The notes under the pieces are model-generated. The model saw only the letters and a program-made list of their open reading frames with translations. It had not been told where the DNA came from and did not search any database. From NCBI GenBank assembly GCA_016190205.1, contig JACPQZ010000076.1, forward strand, positions 4,632 through 68,631: 64,000 nt of DNA, in the 5' to 3' direction. Below are positions 7,936 to 61,561 of the stretch, piece by piece. How positions within the stretch are numbered: the first letter of the stretch is position 1; each line of letters starts with the position of its first letter. Origin of the DNA: Candidatus Omnitrophota bacterium (lineage in GTDB: Bacteria > Omnitrophota > JACPQZ01). The position numbers were made by a program, and so were the translations under genes.

Positions 7936-8193
7936 TCAAACAAAAGTACGGGTGGTGCTGGCCGATTCTCTCCTGATTTCCCTCTCGGCCTGCAGCCAAT
8001 CTTGTTGAGCACTACCCTGCTGCCTGCCCTTCCGTTCCCAAATTGCGTACGCCCGCTCCCGAATTTTTTGTTCGAGTCTCGGTTCGCGTCTTTGCTGCGG
8101 AGCGGCCCCTTGATTCTGCGGAGCGCCCGGAGAGGCTGTCCACTCTCTTTCTCTTCTTGGCCGAGTTGCGACTTCCCTTTTCATTTGACACAC
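7936..8193 (-). CDS. DUF2934 family small protein
   Basis: 85-aa ORF containing ERAYAIWERKGRQQGSAQQDWLQAEREI, the DUF2934 signature. Confidence 0.55.
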   Translation of the reverse strand: MCQMKREVATRPRREREWTASPGAPQNQGAAPQQRREPRLEQKIRERAYAIWERKGRQQGSAQQDWLQAEREIRRESASTTRTFV

Positions 8194-8361
8194 CTCCTTT
8201 TTTAGCTATGAGCTTTCAGCTTTCAGCCGACAGCTGATCGCTCCTTACCTATTAATTGTATTGTGAAAACTGATGCTGGCACTTCATTATACCAAAGCCC
8301 GTATCTTTTTCTATGATATAGTGCTACAATAACGACTCAACCAACTATGGCATAACGAGTA

Positions 8362-24281: not shown

Positions 24282-24412
24282 GGGGGGTCCTTTCGGGAGA
24301 CTTTATTATCTATTTTATTGCTTCATCAACTTTTCATTCGGTACCATCATTCGGTACCAGGTACCGGATAGGGTTTAAACTGGGTTTCACTGTCGTGCCA
24401 GGCACCGAAACT

Positions 24413-30430: not shown

Positions 30431-31258
30431 TTAAACTCCGGGGTTGTTATCAGTGCTTGGTACCGTGTTGCCGGGTACTGTATTTTTCCTTTCCGAAGAC
30501 CGGCGGTAAGGTTTTAATTCCTCATCACTTTGGTAATCTCTAATGATTTCGCGAACCCGTTGGCTTATTGAAGAGGAATCAGTTATAACTGGACCACGAG
30601 CGATTAACTTCCGCTCTTCTGAGAATGTGTTTCCGCTTTTATCTTTATAACAAACCGAAATAATTAGAAAAGGCGGCCTCTCAGGCTCAAATATACTCCC
30701 TTTCTCGGAAATTGGAATCTCACGTTCTTCTTCAGGAGCTATTATATAGTGGAATTTTGGTTGGCGCCCTTTCTTATAAATTTGGGAAATATGCTCACCA
30801 TCAACAATGTATGGGCGAGGAGCACTAAGATCAAAATATTCATGTACCCCTGTGATAGGATTAACAATCACGACCTCGGAATCTAACGCCTCGCCGGTAC
30901 CGATATTTTTTAGAGTTACTTTTCCAACGCCGTTTTCAATATCGACAATTTCATAGCGGCTTACAACTAATCGAGGCTCATATGAATCAGCGCGCTTGGA
31001 TGCAGTCACAACGAGGAGAATCGTAGAAATAAGTAAAGAGAGCAGTGCTGTTAACGTTGCTGGTTGCACATTTCCAAACCTGTCTCTCTCCCAGGAGAAA
31101 AAAATTATTATGCACGCAATCAGATAAATCCAGATCCAAGTTTTGATAGGAAGAGTATTCACAATAAGTGACGGTAGGAAAAAATAACCTGAAATGAAAA
31201 ATGGCAATGGTAGGAGTAATGATGCAACTAAGTGCCGCAATAAGGTCATTATTCCCAT
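30431..31258 (-). CDS. Hypothetical membrane protein in an AT-rich (foreign-looking) segment
   Basis: 275-aa ORF with N-terminal transmembrane helices. Local GC is visibly lower than its surroundings. Tandem GTTAACACA repeats lie in its upstream region. Confidence 0.45.
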   Translation of the reverse strand: MGIMTLLRHLVASLLLPLPFFISGYFFLPSLIVNTLPIKTWIWIYLIACIIIFFSWERDRFGNVQPATLTALLSLLISTILLVVTASKRADSYEPRLVVSRYEIVDIENGVGKVTLKNIGTGEALDSEVVIVNPITGVHEYFDLSAPRPYIVDGEHISQIYKKGRQPKFHYIIAPEEEREIPISEKGSIFEPERPPFLIISVCYKDKSGNTFSEERKLIARGPVITDSSSISQRVREIIRDYQSDEELKPYRRSSERKNTVPGNTVPSTDNNPGV

Positions 31259-31711
31259 ACCGACATTCTTGATAGGTGCGCTATTGTTAACACAATGTTA
31301 ACACAGGTCTATTTTATATAAGCAGGGAGTTATGGCTTAATCATCATTACCACTTCTGTATATTTAAAGTATGCATAACGGAGTCGACGGGATTTGGCGG
31401 TTTGGGCTCGCCACTTAGTCGATTACTCCTTCGGTTATCGGTGTTCGGTGCTCGGTTATCGCAAGAAAAAGAAATATTATGAGCCTTCAGCCGTCGGCTA
31501 TCTGCCTTGGGCTTTTGCTGATGGCTGATGGCTGATAGCCAACAGAGTTTGCGAGCACCGATAACCGATCCACGATCACCGAATCAAATGCTCGCCCAAA
31601 CTCGGCCACTCGCCGCGCCAAGGAAGGCGGTGCTCCCATATAGGTCGCACCGCATGTGTTGGGGGGCGCGGCTCACTTCAAATCCCGTCGACCTTTTGAC
31701 GGAAAAGAAGA

Positions 31712-31787
31712 CGGGGTCGACGGGATTTGAACCCGCGGTCTCCTGATCGACAGTCAGGCGCTTTAAGCCGGACTAAGCTACGACCCC
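31712..31787 (-). tRNA. tRNA-Asp (anticodon GTC)
   Basis: Reverse complement reads GGGGTCGTAGCTTAGTCCGGCTTAAAGCGCCTGACTGTCGATCAGGAGACCGCGGGTTCAAATCCCGTCGACCCCG. It folds as a cloverleaf with anticodon loop CTGTCGA. Confidence 0.85.
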
Positions 31788-31920
31788 TTTAAAACCGTGA
31801 CTCGTCGCTCGTGAATCGTGGTTTTAGCAAGAAACACGCTTGTCGTGAGTGAAGCGTGATGTGTGGTGAAACCGTCACTTCACTCACCCCTCACCACACA
31901 TGACAATCTTTACTCGCCAA

Positions 31921-32803: not shown

Positions 32804-32959
32804 AGTAATCAGAACCAAATCCGGCCTCGTGAAGCGTCGATCGTGAAGACTATCTCACAACCCTGTAATAGAACCTCGCGCCGCTGCCCCTCGTAGCCGC
32901 ATCTTCCTGATACGAGATACGCTTCACGAGATACGAGATACGAAAATGTGGACAGCGTG

Positions 32960-48103: not shown

Positions 48104-49676
48104 TCAGATGGAACTGACAATTTTGTATTTTTTGGCCTTGTAACCTAAAATGCGTTCCGTGATGCCCAGCATCTTCGCCGCGCGGCTTTGATTTCCCCGG
48201 CTCGTGTTTAAGGCTTCCTGGATGAGCCGGGCCTCCAAAGCCTTTACAGAATCCGTCAGACTCAACCGGCCCGCGTTCCCCTCATGAAACCGTTCCTCGG
48301 CATAGTGCGGCACAACCTTATGCCTTATGTTGGAGGGTAAATCCCTCCTGCGGACGACGTGACCCTCCGCCATCACCACCGCCCGCTCCATGCAGTTTTC
48401 GAGCTCTCTGACGTTTCCAGGCCAGGGGTAGGTGATGAGGACATCCATTGCGTCCTGGGCCGGGCGCTCTACCGCCTTCCCATGTTCCTTCCCGGAGCGG
48501 CTGATAAAGTAATCGACGAGCTCCGGGATATCCTCCCTGCGCTCCCTTAAAGGCGGAAGGTAGATGGTGATGACGTTCAGGCGGTAGTAGAGATCCTCTC
48601 GGAACCGTTTCTCCCGCACCTCCTGATCGAGGGGACGGTTGGTGGCCGCTATGATGCGCACGTCCACCTTGATGGTCTCGGTCCCTCCCACCCGCTCAAA
48701 TTCGCGCTCCTGCAGCACCCGCAGCATCTTCACTTGGGCGGCCAGCGTGAGATCCCCTACCTCGTCCAGAAAAAGGGTCCCCCCATGGGCGAGTTCGAAA
48801 CGACCGGGTTTTCTGGCGAGGGCCCCCGTGAACGCCCCCTTTTCGTAACCGAAGAGTTCGCTCTCGAGGAGGGTCTCGGGGATCGACGCTGCGCTTATTC
48901 TGACAAAGGGTCCGTCCGAGCGCGGGCTCATGTAATGGAGGGCGCGTGCAATAAGCTCCTTTCCCGTTCCGCTCTCTCCTAAAAGCAGCACGGTAGCCTT
49001 GGAGCGGGCGCATTGATGGACGACGCGAAAGACGTCCTGCATGGCGCGGCTGGACCCTATGATGTTCTCGACATGGTAGCGGGTCTTGAGCTGCCGGCGG
49101 AGATCTGTATTTTCTTCTTCCAACCTGACGTGCTCCGTACGGACCTGCTGCCTCAAACGGACCGCCTGGGCGATCATAGAGGCGATGGTCGCAAGGAGGC
49201 GAACGTCCTCCTGCAGAGACACGGGCTGCTCAAAGAGCCTGTCCACGCTTAGGGCCCCAATCGTCTTACCGGCATATTTGATCGGAACACAGATGAAGGC
49301 GATGGTCTGCCGGGAGAGATCTCCGCGGGACCGCGTCCGGTTTAGGAAAAGGGGTTCCTTCCCGATGTTGGGGATTGCGATCGGTTCGCCCGCCTCCACC
49401 ACCTTGCCCGTGATCCCCTCGCCCAGCTTATACCGGCCCCGCCGCATTTGCCGCCGGTCCATGCCCTTGGCCGCCTCGATCATGATCTTCTGGGTCTGGG
49501 GGTCCAAGAGCGTGAGTGTTCCGCGCTCCATGCCCATTTCCCGGGCGAGGATATCCAGCACCGAGCGCAGGACATCGAGCTCAAGCGAGGAGGCCAGGGC
49601 CTGGCTGATTGAATGCAGGACATTGAGCTCTTTAAGCCCCTGGCGTAACTCGCCGTTCTTAAGATGATCGGTCATT
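48104..49676 (-). CDS. Sigma-54-dependent transcriptional activator with an N-terminal GAF domain (NifA/NtrC-like)
   Basis: Sigma-54 AAA module ([21 protein letters not shown]) and a C-terminal Fis-type HTH. The start is set at MTDHLKNG (ATG 49676). The upstream in-frame extension translates the repeat element. Confidence 0.85.
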
Positions 49677-49691
49677 TTAACCTTAAATAAC

Positions 49692-50005
49692 TCTGTCCGT
49701 GATTCGTGTTTCGTGATTCGTGAAACGTAGTTGACGACTTGAGTAACCAGAAACCAGCAACCAGATACCAGAAGATTCCAGAGACCAGATACCAGAGTGA
49801 TACGATAAAATTCGAAATACGAAACTCGAAGCACGAAGCAAATTCGAATGACCGAAATTCAAAACTCGAAAACGGTTGTTTTGAATTTCTGATTTCGAAT
49901 TTCTAACTTGCTTCTAATTTCGATCTTCGAATTTCGTATTTTTTCTGGTTACTGGTATCTGGTATCTGGTTTCTTTTTTTCACGATTCACGATCAACGAT
50001 CCACG
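49692..50005. repeat. About 310-bp composite palindrome built from three families of tandem hexamer repeats arranged A-B-C|C-prime-B-prime-A-prime
   Basis: Left arm: (CGTGATT/TCGTGAA)n, then (AACCAG/ATACCAG)n, then (TTCGAAA/ACTCGAA)n. The centre is near 49875. The right arm holds the reverse-complement families (TTCGAATTT..., CTGGTATCTGG..., CACGATTCACGATC...). Confidence 0.85.
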
Positions 50006-50008
50006 AAC

Positions 50009-50824
50009 CTACACTGCGACAATGCACACTCCCCGGGTGTCGGCTTCACAAAGCACCCGCTCACGTTCCAGGATGAGGGTCTCACCCGCCTCAATGGCGA
50101 GGACGCCTGTTTGGGCGTCGGCGAGCGCCTGAACTGTCTTTAGACCGATACAGGGAACATCAAATCGCACATCCTGTTTCGCCTTGCTTACCTTGACGAT
50201 AACGATCCCCGGGCCCGCCACCTGAAAGGCGCGGCGGATCATGTCATCCGTTCCCTCCATGGCCTCCACCGCGACCACGGCCTTGGCCTTTACAGCCACT
50301 GCCTGTCCGACATCCAGGGCAGAGACCTTTTTGGCCAACTCGAACCCAAAGCGGATGTCCGCTTCCTGCTCCGGTGATGGGTTTCTCCGCGTCAAAACCC
50401 CCCTCGATGGGATGAGATCGCTCAAGTACGTCTTTGAGCTCAAGAGGGTAAGGCCCTTCCTGGCCAGATATTTGGCGACAGCCTTGAGCAGGGTGTCCGC
50501 CCGCTTATCCGGCGCCGTAGCCAAGATGAAGGCGAGGGCCGGATCGGGTTTAAAACCTGAAAAGAGTTTTTTATGTTTTATCTGCCCGGCCATCACAACA
50601 TCCGTGACCCCCTCGGACTTCAAATATTCTGTCAGGCGTTCGAGATCCGTGACCTCGATCCAGTGTACCTTGTCTGCGAGCTCCTCGATGCCGCTCTCGG
50701 TCTCACCCCGCACAGCGACCGCCACCACCCGATGGCCGCGCTCCCGCGCCTTGCCCGCAAAAATCAGCGGGTATTGGCCGTTTCCGGCGATCAAACCGAT
50801 CGTTTTAGGAGCTACTTTTTGCAT
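50009..50824 (-). CDS. lpxI: UDP-2,3-diacylglucosamine diphosphatase LpxI (DUF1009)
   Basis: LpxI family similarity (GLIAGNGQYPLIFAGKARERGHRVVAVAV...). It sits in lipid A gene context next to lpxA. Confidence 0.75.
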   Translation of the reverse strand: MQKVAPKTIGLIAGNGQYPLIFAGKARERGHRVVAVAVRGETESGIEELADKVHWIEVTDLERLTEYLKSEGVTDVVMAGQIKHKKLFSGFKPDPALAFILATAPDKRADTLLKAVAKYLARKGLTLLSSKTYLSDLIPSRGVLTRRNPSPEQEADIRFGFELAKKVSALDVGQAVAVKAKAVVAVEAMEGTDDMIRRAFQVAGPGIVIVKVSKAKQDVRFDVPCIGLKTVQALADAQTGVLAIEAGETLILERERVLCEADTRGVCIVAV

Positions 50825-50910
50825 GCGTGTGTGATTCGGGATCCGGGAAGCGGGAACAGGGAACCGCCACCGCTTCCCGCTTCCCGTTTCCCGGTTCCCG
50901 AACCGTCGTT

Positions 50911-51699
50911 TTACTTTGTTATTCCCCGCTCGGACTCTCGGATGAAGCGGACGAGGTGGGTCAATTCGGGGTACGAAGCGAGCTCTTTTTCGATGCGGGC
51001 AAGCGCTTGCGTGACCGCTAAATCAGAACGGTACAGGAGCCGGTGAGCCTTTTTGAGTTCATCTCGACAACGGGGCTCCAAACCAGCGCGCTCGAGACCC
51101 AGCCGGTTGATGCCAAAGACCTTCACCGGGTGGCCATCGGCCATCATAAAGGGGGGGATATCCTTGACCAGTTTGGAAAAGCCCCCGATGATGGAAAGGC
51201 GCCCCACGCGCACGAACTGATGGATTCCGACCATTCCGCCCACGATGGCCTGGGATTCTATCGTGACATGCCCCCCCATGGTAACCGCATTGGCAATAAT
51301 AACGCCGTCTTCGATCCTGCAATCATGGGCGATATGGGCGTAGGCCATGATGAGATTCCGGTCCCCGATAAACGTCTCGCTTTCTTCGCCCGTGGCCGTA
51401 TGCACGGTGACATATTCCCGGACCGTGTTTTGGTCTCCGATTCTTACGCGCGTGACCCCGCCCCTGTATTTGAGGTCCTGGGAGCGGGTCCCGATGACCG
51501 CACCCGGGTAGATCTCACAGCGCTCGCCGATTTCCGTATAGCCGTCCAGGACCACGTGCGACATCAGGCGGGTCCCCGGCCCTATCGTGACGTGTTCCCC
51601 AACCACGCAGTAGGGACCTACGTCGACACCTTCGCCTATCTGGGCCTTGGGATGGACACACGCGGTGGGGTGAATCTGGACCGTATAATTCGTTGCCAT
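50911..51699 (-). CDS. lpxA: Acyl-ACP--UDP-N-acetylglucosamine O-acyltransferase
   Basis: Left-handed beta-helix hexapeptide repeats and an LpxA-like N-terminus (IHPTACVHPKAQIGEGVDVGPYCVVG). Confidence 0.9.
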   Translation of the reverse strand: MATNYTVQIHPTACVHPKAQIGEGVDVGPYCVVGEHVTIGPGTRLMSHVVLDGYTEIGERCEIYPGAVIGTRSQDLKYRGGVTRVRIGDQNTVREYVTVHTATGEESETFIGDRNLIMAYAHIAHDCRIEDGVIIANAVTMGGHVTIESQAIVGGMVGIHQFVRVGRLSIIGGFSKLVKDIPPFMMADGHPVKVFGINRLGLERAGLEPRCRDELKKAHRLLYRSDLAVTQALARIEKELASYPELTHLVRFIRESERGITK

Positions 51700-58377: not shown

Positions 58378-58464
58378 AGTAACCTCTATCAGCTTTCAGC
58401 TTTCAGCTATCAGCTATTAGCTATCAGCTTTCAGCTAACGGCTGAAGGCTGAAGGCTGACTTCG

Positions 58465-58908
58465 CTATTGCTTCACGACCCAAACTTTAAGTTTGCCTGC
58501 GGCGTCCGGGTGGAGTTTGACTTCCACTGTGTAGACACCCAGCTTTTTGATGGGTTCGGGGATCAGGATGTCTTTTCGGTCGATCGAAAGACCTTCCTGC
58601 TGAAGCGCCTGAGCAATATCAGCCGTCGTGAGCGACCCGAACAGCTTATCGTCCGGTCCGGCCTTTTGAGCCACGGTGACCGACATGGAACTCAACCGCC
58701 GGGCGAGTTTCTGGGCCTCTTCCAGCGCCCTCTTTTGCCTCGCCTCTCCCGCCAGGCGCTTGCGCTCCAGCATCTTGACCTGTCCGGGCGTCACTTCCAC
58801 AGCCAGCCGCTGAGCCATGAGATAATTCCGCGCAAAACCGTCGCTCGCCTGGACCCGCTCTCCGGCCTTACCTACCTTTTCTACGTCTTTCAGTAATAAT
58901 ATTTCCAT
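58465..58908 (-). CDS. rplI: 50S ribosomal protein L9
   Basis: Starts MEILLLKDVEKVGKAGERVQASDGFARNYL, as L9 does. Confidence 0.9.
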   Translation of the reverse strand: MEILLLKDVEKVGKAGERVQASDGFARNYLMAQRLAVEVTPGQVKMLERKRLAGEARQKRALEEAQKLARRLSSMSVTVAQKAGPDDKLFGSLTTADIAQALQQEGLSIDRKDILIPEPIKKLGVYTVEVKLHPDAAGKLKVWVVKQ

Positions 58909-58920
58909 AACAAACCTCTA

Positions 58921-59043
58921 CGATCGTTCTTCGTTCATCGTTCTTCGTTCTTCGTTCTTCGTTCGACAACCCGGGTATTTGACATGGATTTCATTTTTTT
59001 GCTGTTACGAAGCACGATGCACGATGAACGAAGCACGTCGTGC
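58921..59043. repeat. Dyad-symmetric hexamer-array element (CTTCGTT/CATCGTT)n ... (CGAAGCA/CGATGCA)n between rplI and rpsR
   Basis: The tandem array cgttcttcgttcatcgttcttcgttcttcgttcttcgttcg is mirrored by cgaagcacgatgcacgatgaacgaagcacg around a ~45-nt core. Confidence 0.8.
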
Positions 59044-59046
59044 CAT

Positions 59047-59355
59047 CTATTCCCCTGTGAATGGCGTCAGCGCCACCATACGCGCGCGCTTGATGGCCCG
59101 CGCGAGCTCACGCTGATGCCAGGCACAGTTTCCGCTGATCCGGCGCGGGACGATCTTGCCCTTTTCCGTCACGAACTTCACGAGCCGCAAGACATCCTTG
59201 TAATCCACCCGTTCCACTTTTTCAGAACAAAACTTGCACACCTTCTTCCTAAAGAATTTGCGCGCCTGGGCCTGCGCCTTCCCCTTCTTCCCTGCCAGCG
59301 CCTTTTTTCCTCTGGGGGGACGTTCACTTTCATACTTTGATCCGAAATCTCTCAT
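59047..59355 (-). CDS. rpsR: 30S ribosomal protein S18
   Basis: S18 signature (...[35 protein letters not shown]...). Confidence 0.9.
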
Positions 59356-60128: not shown

Positions 60129-60700
60129 AAGATCTCCTCTAGCCCGTTGTAAACGTTCATAACGTGAGCGGCGCCCTCCCGAACCCAATCCTCACAAATC
60201 TGCGCCGCGTGATCCACCAGCCGCTTTAATCGGTCTTTCTCCTTCCGGTCCGCGGGGGCAAGGACATAATCCGTGAGGTCCTTAGGCAGGCTGGACTCGC
60301 CAATCCCGCAGCGTAAACGGGGAATCGCGTGGGAACCGACCTCTTCCAGGATATTTTCCAGGCCCTGATGTCCCCCGCTCGTCCCGTGATCCCGGATGCG
60401 GAAACGGCCCAGCGGGAGATGGACATCATCCAGGACCACCAAGATCTCGCTTGCCTCGACCGACCGGGCCTCCTGAAAGGAACGCACGGCCACCCCGCTT
60501 TGATTCATAAAGAGCAGTGGTTTGACGAGCCAGACCGTCTCCCGGCCCACCGCCCCGCGGCCTTCCTCGTAACCGGGGTCCCGCCCGCAAAACTTGAGGC
60601 CCTGACGCCTTGCCAATTCGTCCAGCACCCAGAAGCCGAAGTTGTGCCACGTATTCCGGTAACGCTGGCCTGGATTACCCAGGCCCACGATGGCCTTCAC
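60125..60700 (-). CDS. pth: Peptidyl-tRNA hydrolase
   Basis: Starts MKAIVGLGNPGQRYRNTWHNFGF. Confidence 0.9.
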   Translation of the reverse strand: MKAIVGLGNPGQRYRNTWHNFGFWVLDELARRQGLKFCGRDPGYEEGRGAVGRETVWLVKPLLFMNQSGVAVRSFQEARSVEASEILVVLDDVHLPLGRFRIRDHGTSGGHQGLENILEEVGSHAIPRLRCGIGESSLPKDLTDYVLAPADRKEKDRLKRLVDHAAQICEDWVREGAAHVMNVYNGLEEIL

Positions 60701-61438
60701 CCTTGCCCTTCTCTTCGGTCTTTTCCGGAGCAGCCTTTTCCTTGGCCGACGCCGGCGGTTTCTCCGCCGCTGGTGTGCCTTCCGGCACTTCTTCCTTCTT
60801 ACCCTTGGTTATAACCTCGGGCTCCTGGGTCTCTGCCCCTTCCACAGCAACAGGCTCGGGTTCCTTTTCAGGATGCACCACCGTCACCACCACCGCATCG
60901 GGCTCATTCAGCACCTTTAAAGAGGAGGCGAGAACCAGATCCTTGACATGGATCGCCTCGCCCATCTTAAGCAGGGAGCAGTCCACCTCGATCCGCTCCG
61001 GGATATCGGCAGGAAGGCATTCGACTTCCAGTTCCCATAAGATGCGTTCCAAAATTCCTCCATCCTGAACCACACCCACAGCCTCTCCCTTCACAGCGAC
61101 AGGGACCTTGATCTTGATGCGTTGGGTGAGCGATATGTGGTCAAAATCCACATGCTGGATGACCCCGGTGACCGGGTCCTGCTGGACCTCCCGGACGAGG
61201 ACCGTCTTGGAATGGGCCTTCACGCCGCCCCTGATTTCAAGGTCGATGATCACGTTCCCGCCCAGTCCAGTGCGGAGGGCACGCTCCAGATCAGACCTGG
61301 GAACCTTGAGATGTACCGAGGCCTCTTTCTTTCCGTACACAACTGCGGGGATAAATCCCCCGCGCCTTAAACGCCGAGCCTCGGCACTCCCGATCGTCGA
61401 CCTTTCTTCAGTCTTCAGCTTGTATTTTTCTGGCATAC
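60675..61438 (-). CDS. ctc: 50S ribosomal protein L25 / general stress protein Ctc with a C-terminal extension
   Basis: Starts MPEKYKLKTEERSTIGSAEARRLRRGGFIPAVVYGK and has a Lys/Glu/Pro-rich C-terminal tail. The start is set at ATG 61438. The upstream in-frame extension covers the hexamer-array element. Confidence 0.85.
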
Positions 61439-61561
61439 ACTGCCCCTCTATGACTTTCGCGGGATTCGCGTTTCGTGATTCGGGAATCGGGAACAGGGAA
61501 TCAAAACCTTTTTTCAGCGGTACCCGCTTCCCGGTTCCCTGTTCCCGTGTCCCGGACACGG

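Follow-up and report, generated by a model that had tools for sequence, protein, structure and literature searches.

A 64,000-nt stretch of DNA from a Candidatus Omnitrophota bacterium metagenome-assembled genome (MAG), which we call the window and whose positions serve as coordinates throughout, carries in its intergenic spacers a family of dyad elements built from short tandem repeats that face an array of their reverse complement. The main element discussed here lies between rpsR and rplI at 58920-59042. Such a family, with repeat units that differ from site to site, had been proposed before, and its existence is borne out by tandem repeat detection, by inverted-repeat pairing and by folding. 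The elements are inverted pairs of heptameric simple-sequence repeats (SSRs), of the kind called LSSR (long simple-sequence repeats) or short tandemly repeated repetitive sequences (STRR). This kind has already been published and is here found in Omnitrophota. The novelty implied by the original prediction is lost, as inverted heptamer pairs have been described for Xanthomonas (PMC4692102) and Geobacter (PMC2700814) and heptamer STRR and LSSR are known from cyanobacteria and numerous other bacteria (PMC4679880 and PMC4692102, both citing Mrazek 2007). Distinctive for this genome are the unusual density of the elements, the many unit families within one genome and the nested layers. We consider it reasonably probable that the elements act as co-transcribed intercistronic stem-loops that have grown by 7-nt slippage and that modulate mRNA stability, processing or coupling.

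Architecture and location of the heptamer dyads

Arrays were detected with Tandem Repeats Finder (TRF) and with a separate periodicity scan. In the main element, TRF reports a left array with 5.9 copies of TCGTTCT at 58924-58964 (period 7, 94% matches) and a right array with 4.4 copies of ACGAAGC at 59007-59037 (period 7). The left array reads CGTTCTT, CGTTCAT, CGTTCTT, CGTTCTT, CGTTCTT, CGTTCGA and the right array ACGAAGC, ACGATGC, ACGATGA, ACGAAGC, ACG, and a central loop of 42 nt separates the two. The repeat finder describes the arms as an inverted repeat pair of 31 nt with 87% complementarity and 51 nt in between. Dinucleotide shuffles of both strands served as control for fold stability. 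The predicted main stem-loop has about -43 kcal/mol on either strand compared to -29 to -31 kcal/mol for the shuffles (z -3 to -4), a gain in stability of about 13 kcal/mol on both strands. The stem begins 5 nt past the rpsR stop codon (59047-59049) and ends beside the Shine-Dalgarno (SD) sequence AGAGG of rplI (58915-58919), the ATG of which is located at 58908. A small open reading frame (ORF) of 19 codons in the loop has no SD and was dismissed.

All 16 arrays of the window with at least three copies in TRF have a period of 7, and no other period is found. The unit is a heptamer and not a 6-7-nt sequence, as the original prediction had it. The first array of an element holds 3-7 imperfect tandem copies. 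The periodicity scan yields 19 period-7 runs compared to 1.5 (maximum 5) in 50 first-order Markov-type shuffles, and no runs at periods 8-12 in the window. The units vary by site and comprise the families CGTTCTT, TTCAGCT, CGGGAAC, CGTGATT, ACCAGAA, TTCGAAA and TCGGTGN. Some families are shared across loci in the same orientation (8200 and 58386; 50833 and 61465; 49698 and 61465). Similarity between elements is restricted to the arrays, and there is no common core, loop or terminus. For comparison, 83 other loci with 1.22 Mb were fetched from other genomes around dnaB. The array density is about 0.25 per kb in the window and 0.03 per kb in these loci, a difference of about 8-fold, which supports the earlier description of the elements as genome-characteristic. 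Among arrays with at least 3.5 copies in the other loci, period 7 is again the commonest (29 arrays), compared to 20 arrays of period 6 and 5 of period 8.

By inverted-repeat pairing, clear dyads are present at seven of nine loci, with one one-sided array and one weak case making up the remainder (Table 1). Seven of the eight sites that had been listed originally are confirmed as dyads; the eighth, 31795-31830, is weak, having no partner array and not being reported by TRF, and the array at 8200-8234 had been overlooked. The complementary partner of this latter array is one unit only (GCTGA/TCAGC), and its unit family is the same as at 58386-58437. Predicted stabilities range from z -3 to -12 relative to the shuffles. 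The lpxA->lpxI element is the most compact and most stable with -0.67 kcal/mol per nt (z -11). The nested element, between the lpxI stop codon (50009-50011) and the ATG of the sigma-54 activator gene (49675), consists of an outer layer of CGTGATT and CACGATC, a middle layer of seven copies of AACCAGA and 4.4 copies of TCTGGTA, and an inner layer of AAATTCG-ACGAAGC and TTTCGAA, and it is predicted at -130 kcal/mol on the sense strand (z -12). In the two-layer element, the outer layer is formed by 3.9 copies of TTCGGTG (31430-31456) and CACCGAN (31555-31582), and the inner layer by 2.9 copies of GCTGATG (31517-31536) with a partial partner at 31482-31500. The dyad upstream of tRNA-Glu is looser than the other elements. 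In the left arm of the prs->ctc element the unit shifts from TTCGCGT via TTCGTGA to TCGGGAA (61480-61502).

Table 1. Heptamer elements of the window
Element	Coordinates	Strand	Composition and setting
Main element (rpsR->rplI)	58920-59042	-	Stem-loop in the 138-nt rpsR->rplI spacer
rplI->dnaB element	58383-58463	-	CTATCAG/CTTTCAG x7.4 (58386-58437), then GGCTGAA x2.9 (58440-58459)
prs->ctc (L25) element	61465-61558	-	Left arm graded; right arm CGGTTCC x5.4 (61518-61555)
lpxA->lpxI element	50833-50902	-	CGGGAAN x4-5, 9-nt loop, CCGCTTC x4.4
Nested element	49695-50010	-	Three layers filling the 334-nt lpxI / sigma-54 activator gene spacer
Two-layer element	31430-31582		Between tRNA-Asp and ORF 30431-31258
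Element upstream of tRNA-Glu	32826-32947		GATACGA x5 (32909-32943) pairs with CTCGTGAAGCGTCGATCGT (32826-32844)
One-sided array	8200-8234	-	TTTCAGC x4 shortly before the SD of a minus-strand DUF2934 gene (7936-8184)
Weak case	31795-31830		About 3.5 degenerate CGTGANT units in the tRNA-Asp / tRNA-Val spacer

Only 13.5% of the window is non-coding, yet all eight element loci fall into this part (P about 1e-7), and the elements account for 12% of the non-coding DNA. The flanking genes were identified by translation (S18, L9, DnaB) or by Pfam (SSB, L25, Prs, LpxI, LpxA), in agreement with the names lpxI, lpxA, ctc, prs, rplI, rpsR and dnaB that had been assigned before. The neighbouring protein genes are not convergent, as previously stated, but co-directional on the minus strand. 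Five elements fill the stop-to-SD spacers of such genes. On the sense strand, 1-6 nt separate the upstream stop codon from the beginning of the stem, which finishes just before the downstream SD; in three cases TAGAGG follows directly after the 3' arm. An SD or a start codon is never found inside any of the elements, and the folding of other spacers of similar length in the window is unremarkable. Of the 70 called features of the window, about 60 lie on the minus strand, all four tRNA genes among them, and the GC skew of the + strand is negative throughout. The window probably lies on one replichore with its genes co-oriented with replication.

Arm turnover and possible role in the transcript

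In the stems, roughly one mismatch, 1x1 or 2x2, interrupts the pairing of each heptamer. The two arms of an element have their own unit variants (TTCAGCT vs TTCAGCC; CGTTCTT vs CGTGCWT), the similarity of a unit to its neighbours in the same arm is 0.71-1.0 compared to a match of 0.54-0.82 to the other arm, and the arms differ in copy number (7 vs 3 in the rplI->dnaB element, 6 vs 4 and 7 vs 4 in others). Periodic mismatches, arm-specific variants and unequal copies together indicate an independent turnover of the two arms, which is what slippage would lead one to expect. Within 61465-61500 the unit changes in single-base steps through TTCGCGT, TTCGTGA, TTCGGGA, ATCGGGA and ACAGGGA. Such grading in place and the arm-wise variation fit replication slippage and not the copying of a mobile element. 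If selection is at work at all, its target is the entire stem and not the individual base pair. Since any register of an array pairs with any register of its complement, a change in copy number would alter the length of the stem while the stem itself is kept. An apparent asymmetry in arm length, with the SD-proximal arm longer or equal in five compared elements, was reversed relative to gene direction in other loci and was dropped.

These properties can be combined into the following model. The arrays would lengthen and shorten by replication slippage in steps of 7 nt, following a bias that is seen across bacteria, and template switching within the hairpin may maintain complementarity between the arms as far as the unit family is concerned. 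Most elements are inside co-directional gene rows and are therefore probably co-transcribed. In the mRNA they would form a long stem-loop that is interrupted by mismatches at intervals of about 7 nt. A stem that begins just past the stop codon of the upstream gene and ends just before the SD of the downstream gene would draw stop and start together, and this proximity would preserve translational coupling. By analogy to the stem-loops of repetitive extragenic palindromic (REP) sequences and bacterial interspersed mosaic elements (BIMEs), the role would most likely be that of an intercistronic stability, processing or attenuation hairpin.

Related genomes show how variable the same junctions are. 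In DnaB-centred loci of a species-representative genome collection, the best matches to the DnaB of the window are 60-67% identical and belong to Candidatus Omnitrophota. The sole contig with an identical L9 region has identical arrays. One Candidatus Omnitrophica MAG contig encodes an identical L9 protein, and the next L9 relatives have only 63, 60 and 56% identity. In Omnitrophota relatives, the S18->L9, L9->DnaB and Prs->L25 spacers mostly have 0-50 nt, compared to 138, 87 and 125 nt in the window. Where the spacers of relatives are long, they mostly hold a strong hairpin of unrelated sequence (eight loci). One L9->DnaB spacer (L083) contains a heptamer dyad with another unit (GATTTTA/ACAATCT), as does one Prs->L25 spacer (L022; ACAGAAG/TCTGACT). 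Heptamer dyads are also found in other lineages. A Syntrophaceae MAG (locus L034, 1395-1790) has a 373-nt S18->L9 spacer with a nested heptamer dyad predicted at -141 kcal/mol, whose outer arms (8.6 copies of AAACYCT and 3.6 copies of TTTAGRG) surround two ordinary GC-rich hairpins. An Acidobacteriota MAG (L066) has a compact dyad immediately after dnaB, and a Thermodesulfobacteriota MAG (L052) a further one. The recurrence at these junctions is partly a sampling effect because the comparison loci were picked around dnaB. A Deltaproteobacteria MAG (L040, 7990-8094) carries about 15 tandem copies of GTCCAAG/GTCTCAA, for which no search for a reverse-complement partner was made; long heptamer arrays may thus occur singly as well.

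Several findings weigh against a function in the transcript. No compensation was found between the unit variants of the two arms, and the mismatches are periodic. Sense and antisense folds are about equally stable, with the antisense fold being better in two elements. G.U versus A.C mismatches reveal no strand asymmetry, their direction being mixed among elements; in the rplI->dnaB element, for example, each unit has one mismatch, which is C.A on the sense strand but corresponds to a G.U pair in the antisense fold. Without such asymmetry nothing points specifically to selection at the RNA level, and sequence alone cannot separate RNA from DNA. Three elements adjoin tRNA genes and are not located inside protein operons. 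Most relatives have short spacers without elements, so the hairpins are dispensable. A scan for promoters found promoter-like sites near the elements at shuffle level only. Rehm et al. 2015 assigned no function to the heptamer repeats of Xanthomonas or of Nostoc (GGGGAYT) (PMC4692102). Finally, the elements are not canonical Rho-independent terminators. The original suggestion of a terminator, an attenuator or a protein-binding array is a guess, and the terminator role fails in its canonical intrinsic form, as the sense strand has no U-tract and the terminator scan calls no element on the minus strand; the sense-strand 3' flanks of the intergenic stems are an SD and a start codon instead.

A large part of these findings suits the main rival explanation, according to which the dyads are a neutral by-product of a 7-nt slippage bias and of template switching at quasi-palindromes, tolerated where they stay clear of SD and start codon and free of any regulatory role. 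We regard this as possible, yet clearly less probable than a function of the stem-loops. It would account for the lineage-specific occurrence with absence from most relatives at the same junctions, for the unequal arms with their own variants and uncompensated periodic mismatches, for the strand symmetry of folding, for a heptamer bias that is general across unrelated genomes (the 83 loci; PMC4692102) and for the lack of an assigned function in Xanthomonas and Nostoc. It does not easily explain why nearly every array of the window has a partner, as independent turnover should erode the pairing and arrays may occur singly elsewhere (L040, L045). It also leaves aside that relatives repeatedly have unrelated hairpins at these same junctions and that 12% of the non-coding DNA of a compact genome is given to the elements.

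T-runs occur on the other strand. On the + strand at 49940-49990, one T-run comes after the inner and another after the middle layer of the nested element (TATTTTTT, TTTCTTTTTTT), and at 50900-50925 the lpxA->lpxI element is followed by GTCGTTTTACTTTGTT. These T-runs are terminator-like for antisense transcription only; the sense strand has A-runs 5' of the corresponding layers.

Comparison with known repeats and element classes

Heptanucleotides are the most abundant class of long SSRs in many bacteria according to Mrazek 2007, as cited in PMC4679880 and PMC4692102, and the same two papers relate the proposal of Mrazek and co-workers that 7 nt matches the stretch held by DNA polymerase and thereby favours slippage. 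The closest relatives of our elements are found in Xanthomonas, where most GGGAATC repeats are located between aligned ORFs and no farther than 50 bp from a stop or a start codon (Rehm et al. 2015, PMC4692102). They are mostly transcribed, differ in length between species and form 70-75 convergent, stem-loop capable pairs per genome (PMC4692102). The elements of the window share the tandem 7-nt units (typically about 4 copies), the non-coding position between aligned ORFs near stop or start codons and the convergent arrays, and 50833-50902 and 61465-61558 even use essentially the same unit (GGGAATC/GGGAACN). In contrast to Xanthomonas, the window has at least seven unrelated unit families, most of them without G-tracts, and up to three nested layers. 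Geobacter metallireducens has paired sites on opposite strands with five tandem heptanucleotides (MTYCTGA), for instance at proB/proA (Aklujkar et al. 2009, PMC2700814). Paired opposite-strand arrays, several unit classes per genome and a position inside operons are common to both organisms; the Geobacter sites, however, are multicopy families that can be found by BLAST, and their units are unrelated to most of ours. Seen together, tandem 7-nt units, a nearby reverse-complement array and a non-coding bias between aligned ORFs, three features of the Xanthomonas and Geobacter types, are found in the window.

Other heptamer repeats are more distant. Marine Beggiatoaceae carry intergenic arrays of TAACTGA in 2-6 copies a few nucleotides upstream of start codons, including those of ribosomal-protein operons (MacGregor 2015, PMC4679880), and a post-transcriptional role has been proposed for them (PMC4679880). 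There, 169 direct sets compare to one indirect set and a single unit is used, whereas in the window dyads rule and units vary; TAACTGA has no tandem copies in the window. STRR, the oldest example, are tandem heptamers that occur in intergenic regions many times per genome. In the genes for RNase P RNA they flank helix P12 and lengthen it. Their hosts are heterocystous cyanobacteria with mostly single direct arrays, in contrast to the dyads in Omnitrophota, and the units CCCCAGT, TTGGTCA and CAACAGT are not found in tandem in the window, so that the cyanobacterial STRR were rejected as an assignment.

The strand symmetry of folding could also reflect a structure or a binding array at the DNA level, be it a G-quadruplex (G4) or i-motif, a cruciform, or an array for a nucleoid protein of the integration host factor (IHF)/HU type. 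Such arrays would influence transcription, supercoiling or replication. We hold both the structure and this effect to be unlikely. In favour, the elements at 50833-50902 and 61465-61558 contain four-fold canonical G3N4 motifs with a unit of the GGGAATC type, which is able to form G4 in vitro (PMC4692102). The G4 motif is found on the G-rich strands of both arms in the former and on the complement of the C-rich arm in the latter, the unit of which equals the Xanthomonas type. Binding of IHF or HU was guessed by Aklujkar et al. for the paired sites of Geobacter (PMC2700814). Yet G-tracts are restricted to these two of nine loci and are absent from the main element with its CGTTCTT and ACGAAGC units. 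As most unit families lack G-tracts, G4 formation cannot be the common principle and was discarded as such. The diversity of at least seven unrelated families under one architecture speaks against arrays that are bound by a single sequence-specific protein, and a mismatch every 7 bp disfavours the extrusion of a cruciform.

REPs of Enterobacteria and Pseudomonas are conserved palindromes of 20-40 nt with a GTAG or CGTC tag that are mobilised by RAYT transposases. Like REP and BIME, the elements of the window are intercistronic, hairpin-forming, high-copy and extragenic, and in this respect they offer an analogy for mRNA stabilisation or attenuation. An origin as small mobile palindromic elements of the REP, BIME or MITE (miniature inverted-repeat transposable element) type, spread by a transposase and with the arrays as terminal inverted repeats, is very improbable in our view. 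It would be consistent with the recurrence of unit families at separate loci in the same orientation, with nested layers as insertions into the loop of another element, and with the location of one element between duplicated 3' fragments of tRNA-Asp. Against it, no core, loop or terminus is shared outside the arrays, target-site duplications were not seen, every locus has its own copy number and unit variants, and the single-base grading from CGCG via CGTG and CGGG to AGGG at 61465-61500 fits evolution in place. A conserved GTAG or CGTC tag is missing from the elements; GTAG at two of the ends coincides with a stop codon or SD. A REP or BIME assignment was rejected because no palindrome or terminus is common to the elements and heptamer arrays alone are shared, and a MITE assignment because there is neither similarity between elements outside the arrays nor, on reading, a flanking target-site duplication. 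The original prediction had set the elements apart from CRISPR and from REP and BOX sequences. This separation stands: the units are contiguous and 7 nt long, compared to CRISPR repeats of 23-47 nt with unique spacers of similar length, and there is no match to REP or BOX. A scan with Rfam at gathering thresholds returned tRNAs only, and at E values up to 1 the region 49-62 kb returned only sub-threshold microRNA-precursor hairpins, which reflect the long stems.

An assembly or sequencing artefact, for example chimeric fold-back joins, deserves next to no weight. The Logan contig L081 (SRR12113385) is 100% identical over rplI, over the element between rplI and dnaB and over that arm of the main element which is nearer to rplI. 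This identity argues against an artefact of the assembler, even though the contig may derive from the same reads as the MAG. The nine loci are interior to a long contig and lie precisely between intact genes, and similar elements are present in many independent MAGs of other phyla and, according to the literature, in finished genomes. Position 1 of L081 corresponds to 58967, so this contig ends within the loop of the main element. This end is the one point in favour of an artefact, and it indicates that the dyads disturb short-read assembly. The contigs of the three nearest L9 relatives have only 0.8-1.5 kb; dyad repeats probably fragment the short-read assemblies of this lineage.

Why bacteria accumulate 7-base repeats and which role these play has been a question from the description of STRR in 1990 through the studies on Xanthomonas and Beggiatoaceae in 2015. 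With at least seven unrelated units and up to three nested layers, this one genome argues that period 7 and dyad symmetry define the elements, and the unit diversity argues against explanations that depend on a motif, including G4. The elements occupy spacers in essential and conserved gene rows (prs-ctc, rpsR-rplI-dnaB, lpxA-lpxI), and at the same junctions unrelated lineages have hairpins of another kind or heptamer dyads with other units. The furthest generalization of these findings, which we consider doubtful, would see in the dyads more than tolerated products of slippage, namely a class of intercistronic stem-loops that is independent of sequence, tunable in length and used across Omnitrophota, Desulfobacterota, Acidobacteriota and Xanthomonas. 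If true, slippage quantised in 7 nt together with template switching from arm to arm would set the stem length, and the stem length would set the expression ratio or the translational coupling in essential operons. Stems could then change fast in 7-nt steps with pairing never being lost.

Further repeats and effects on annotation

In practical terms, short-read assemblies break at the dyads, and ORF callers can be led astray by them, with spurious ORFs running into three elements. Mechanical ORF calling extends or creates ORFs over the heptamer arrays at 48104-49834, 60675-61559 and 58984-59340; one example is a 576-aa ORF with a GTG start, 159 nt of which overlap the nested element. Start codons may be placed wrongly where such genomes are annotated automatically.

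A different palindromic repeat, ACTTACG...CGTAAGT, is present in locus L041 (1020-1045, 1150-1175, 4910-4936) and in L038 (69-97). Its three copies in L041 include one in the L9->DnaB spacer, and it looks like a REP-like family that is specific to that genome.

Around tRNA-Asp, the 3' end of the tRNA gene (GTCGACGGGATTTGAA) recurs within 350 bp once inverted (exact) and once direct (2 mismatches), where 0.08 would be expected. The copies are located at 31383-31398, 31677-31692 and 31716-31731, with one heptamer dyad between the fragments. In the region of 24-32 kb, the GC content drops to 0.49-0.51, ORFs are small and spacers are long. This looks like att-type duplications of tRNA fragments beside an integrated island. 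Upstream of ORF 30431-31258, which is on the minus strand and has no Pfam match, two exact tandem copies of the 11-mer TGTTAACACAA are found at 31285-31305, and they resemble an operator. A further exact tandem duplication, of the 13-mer TCATTCGGTACCA (two copies), is found at 24334-24359 in a spacer of the lower-GC region.

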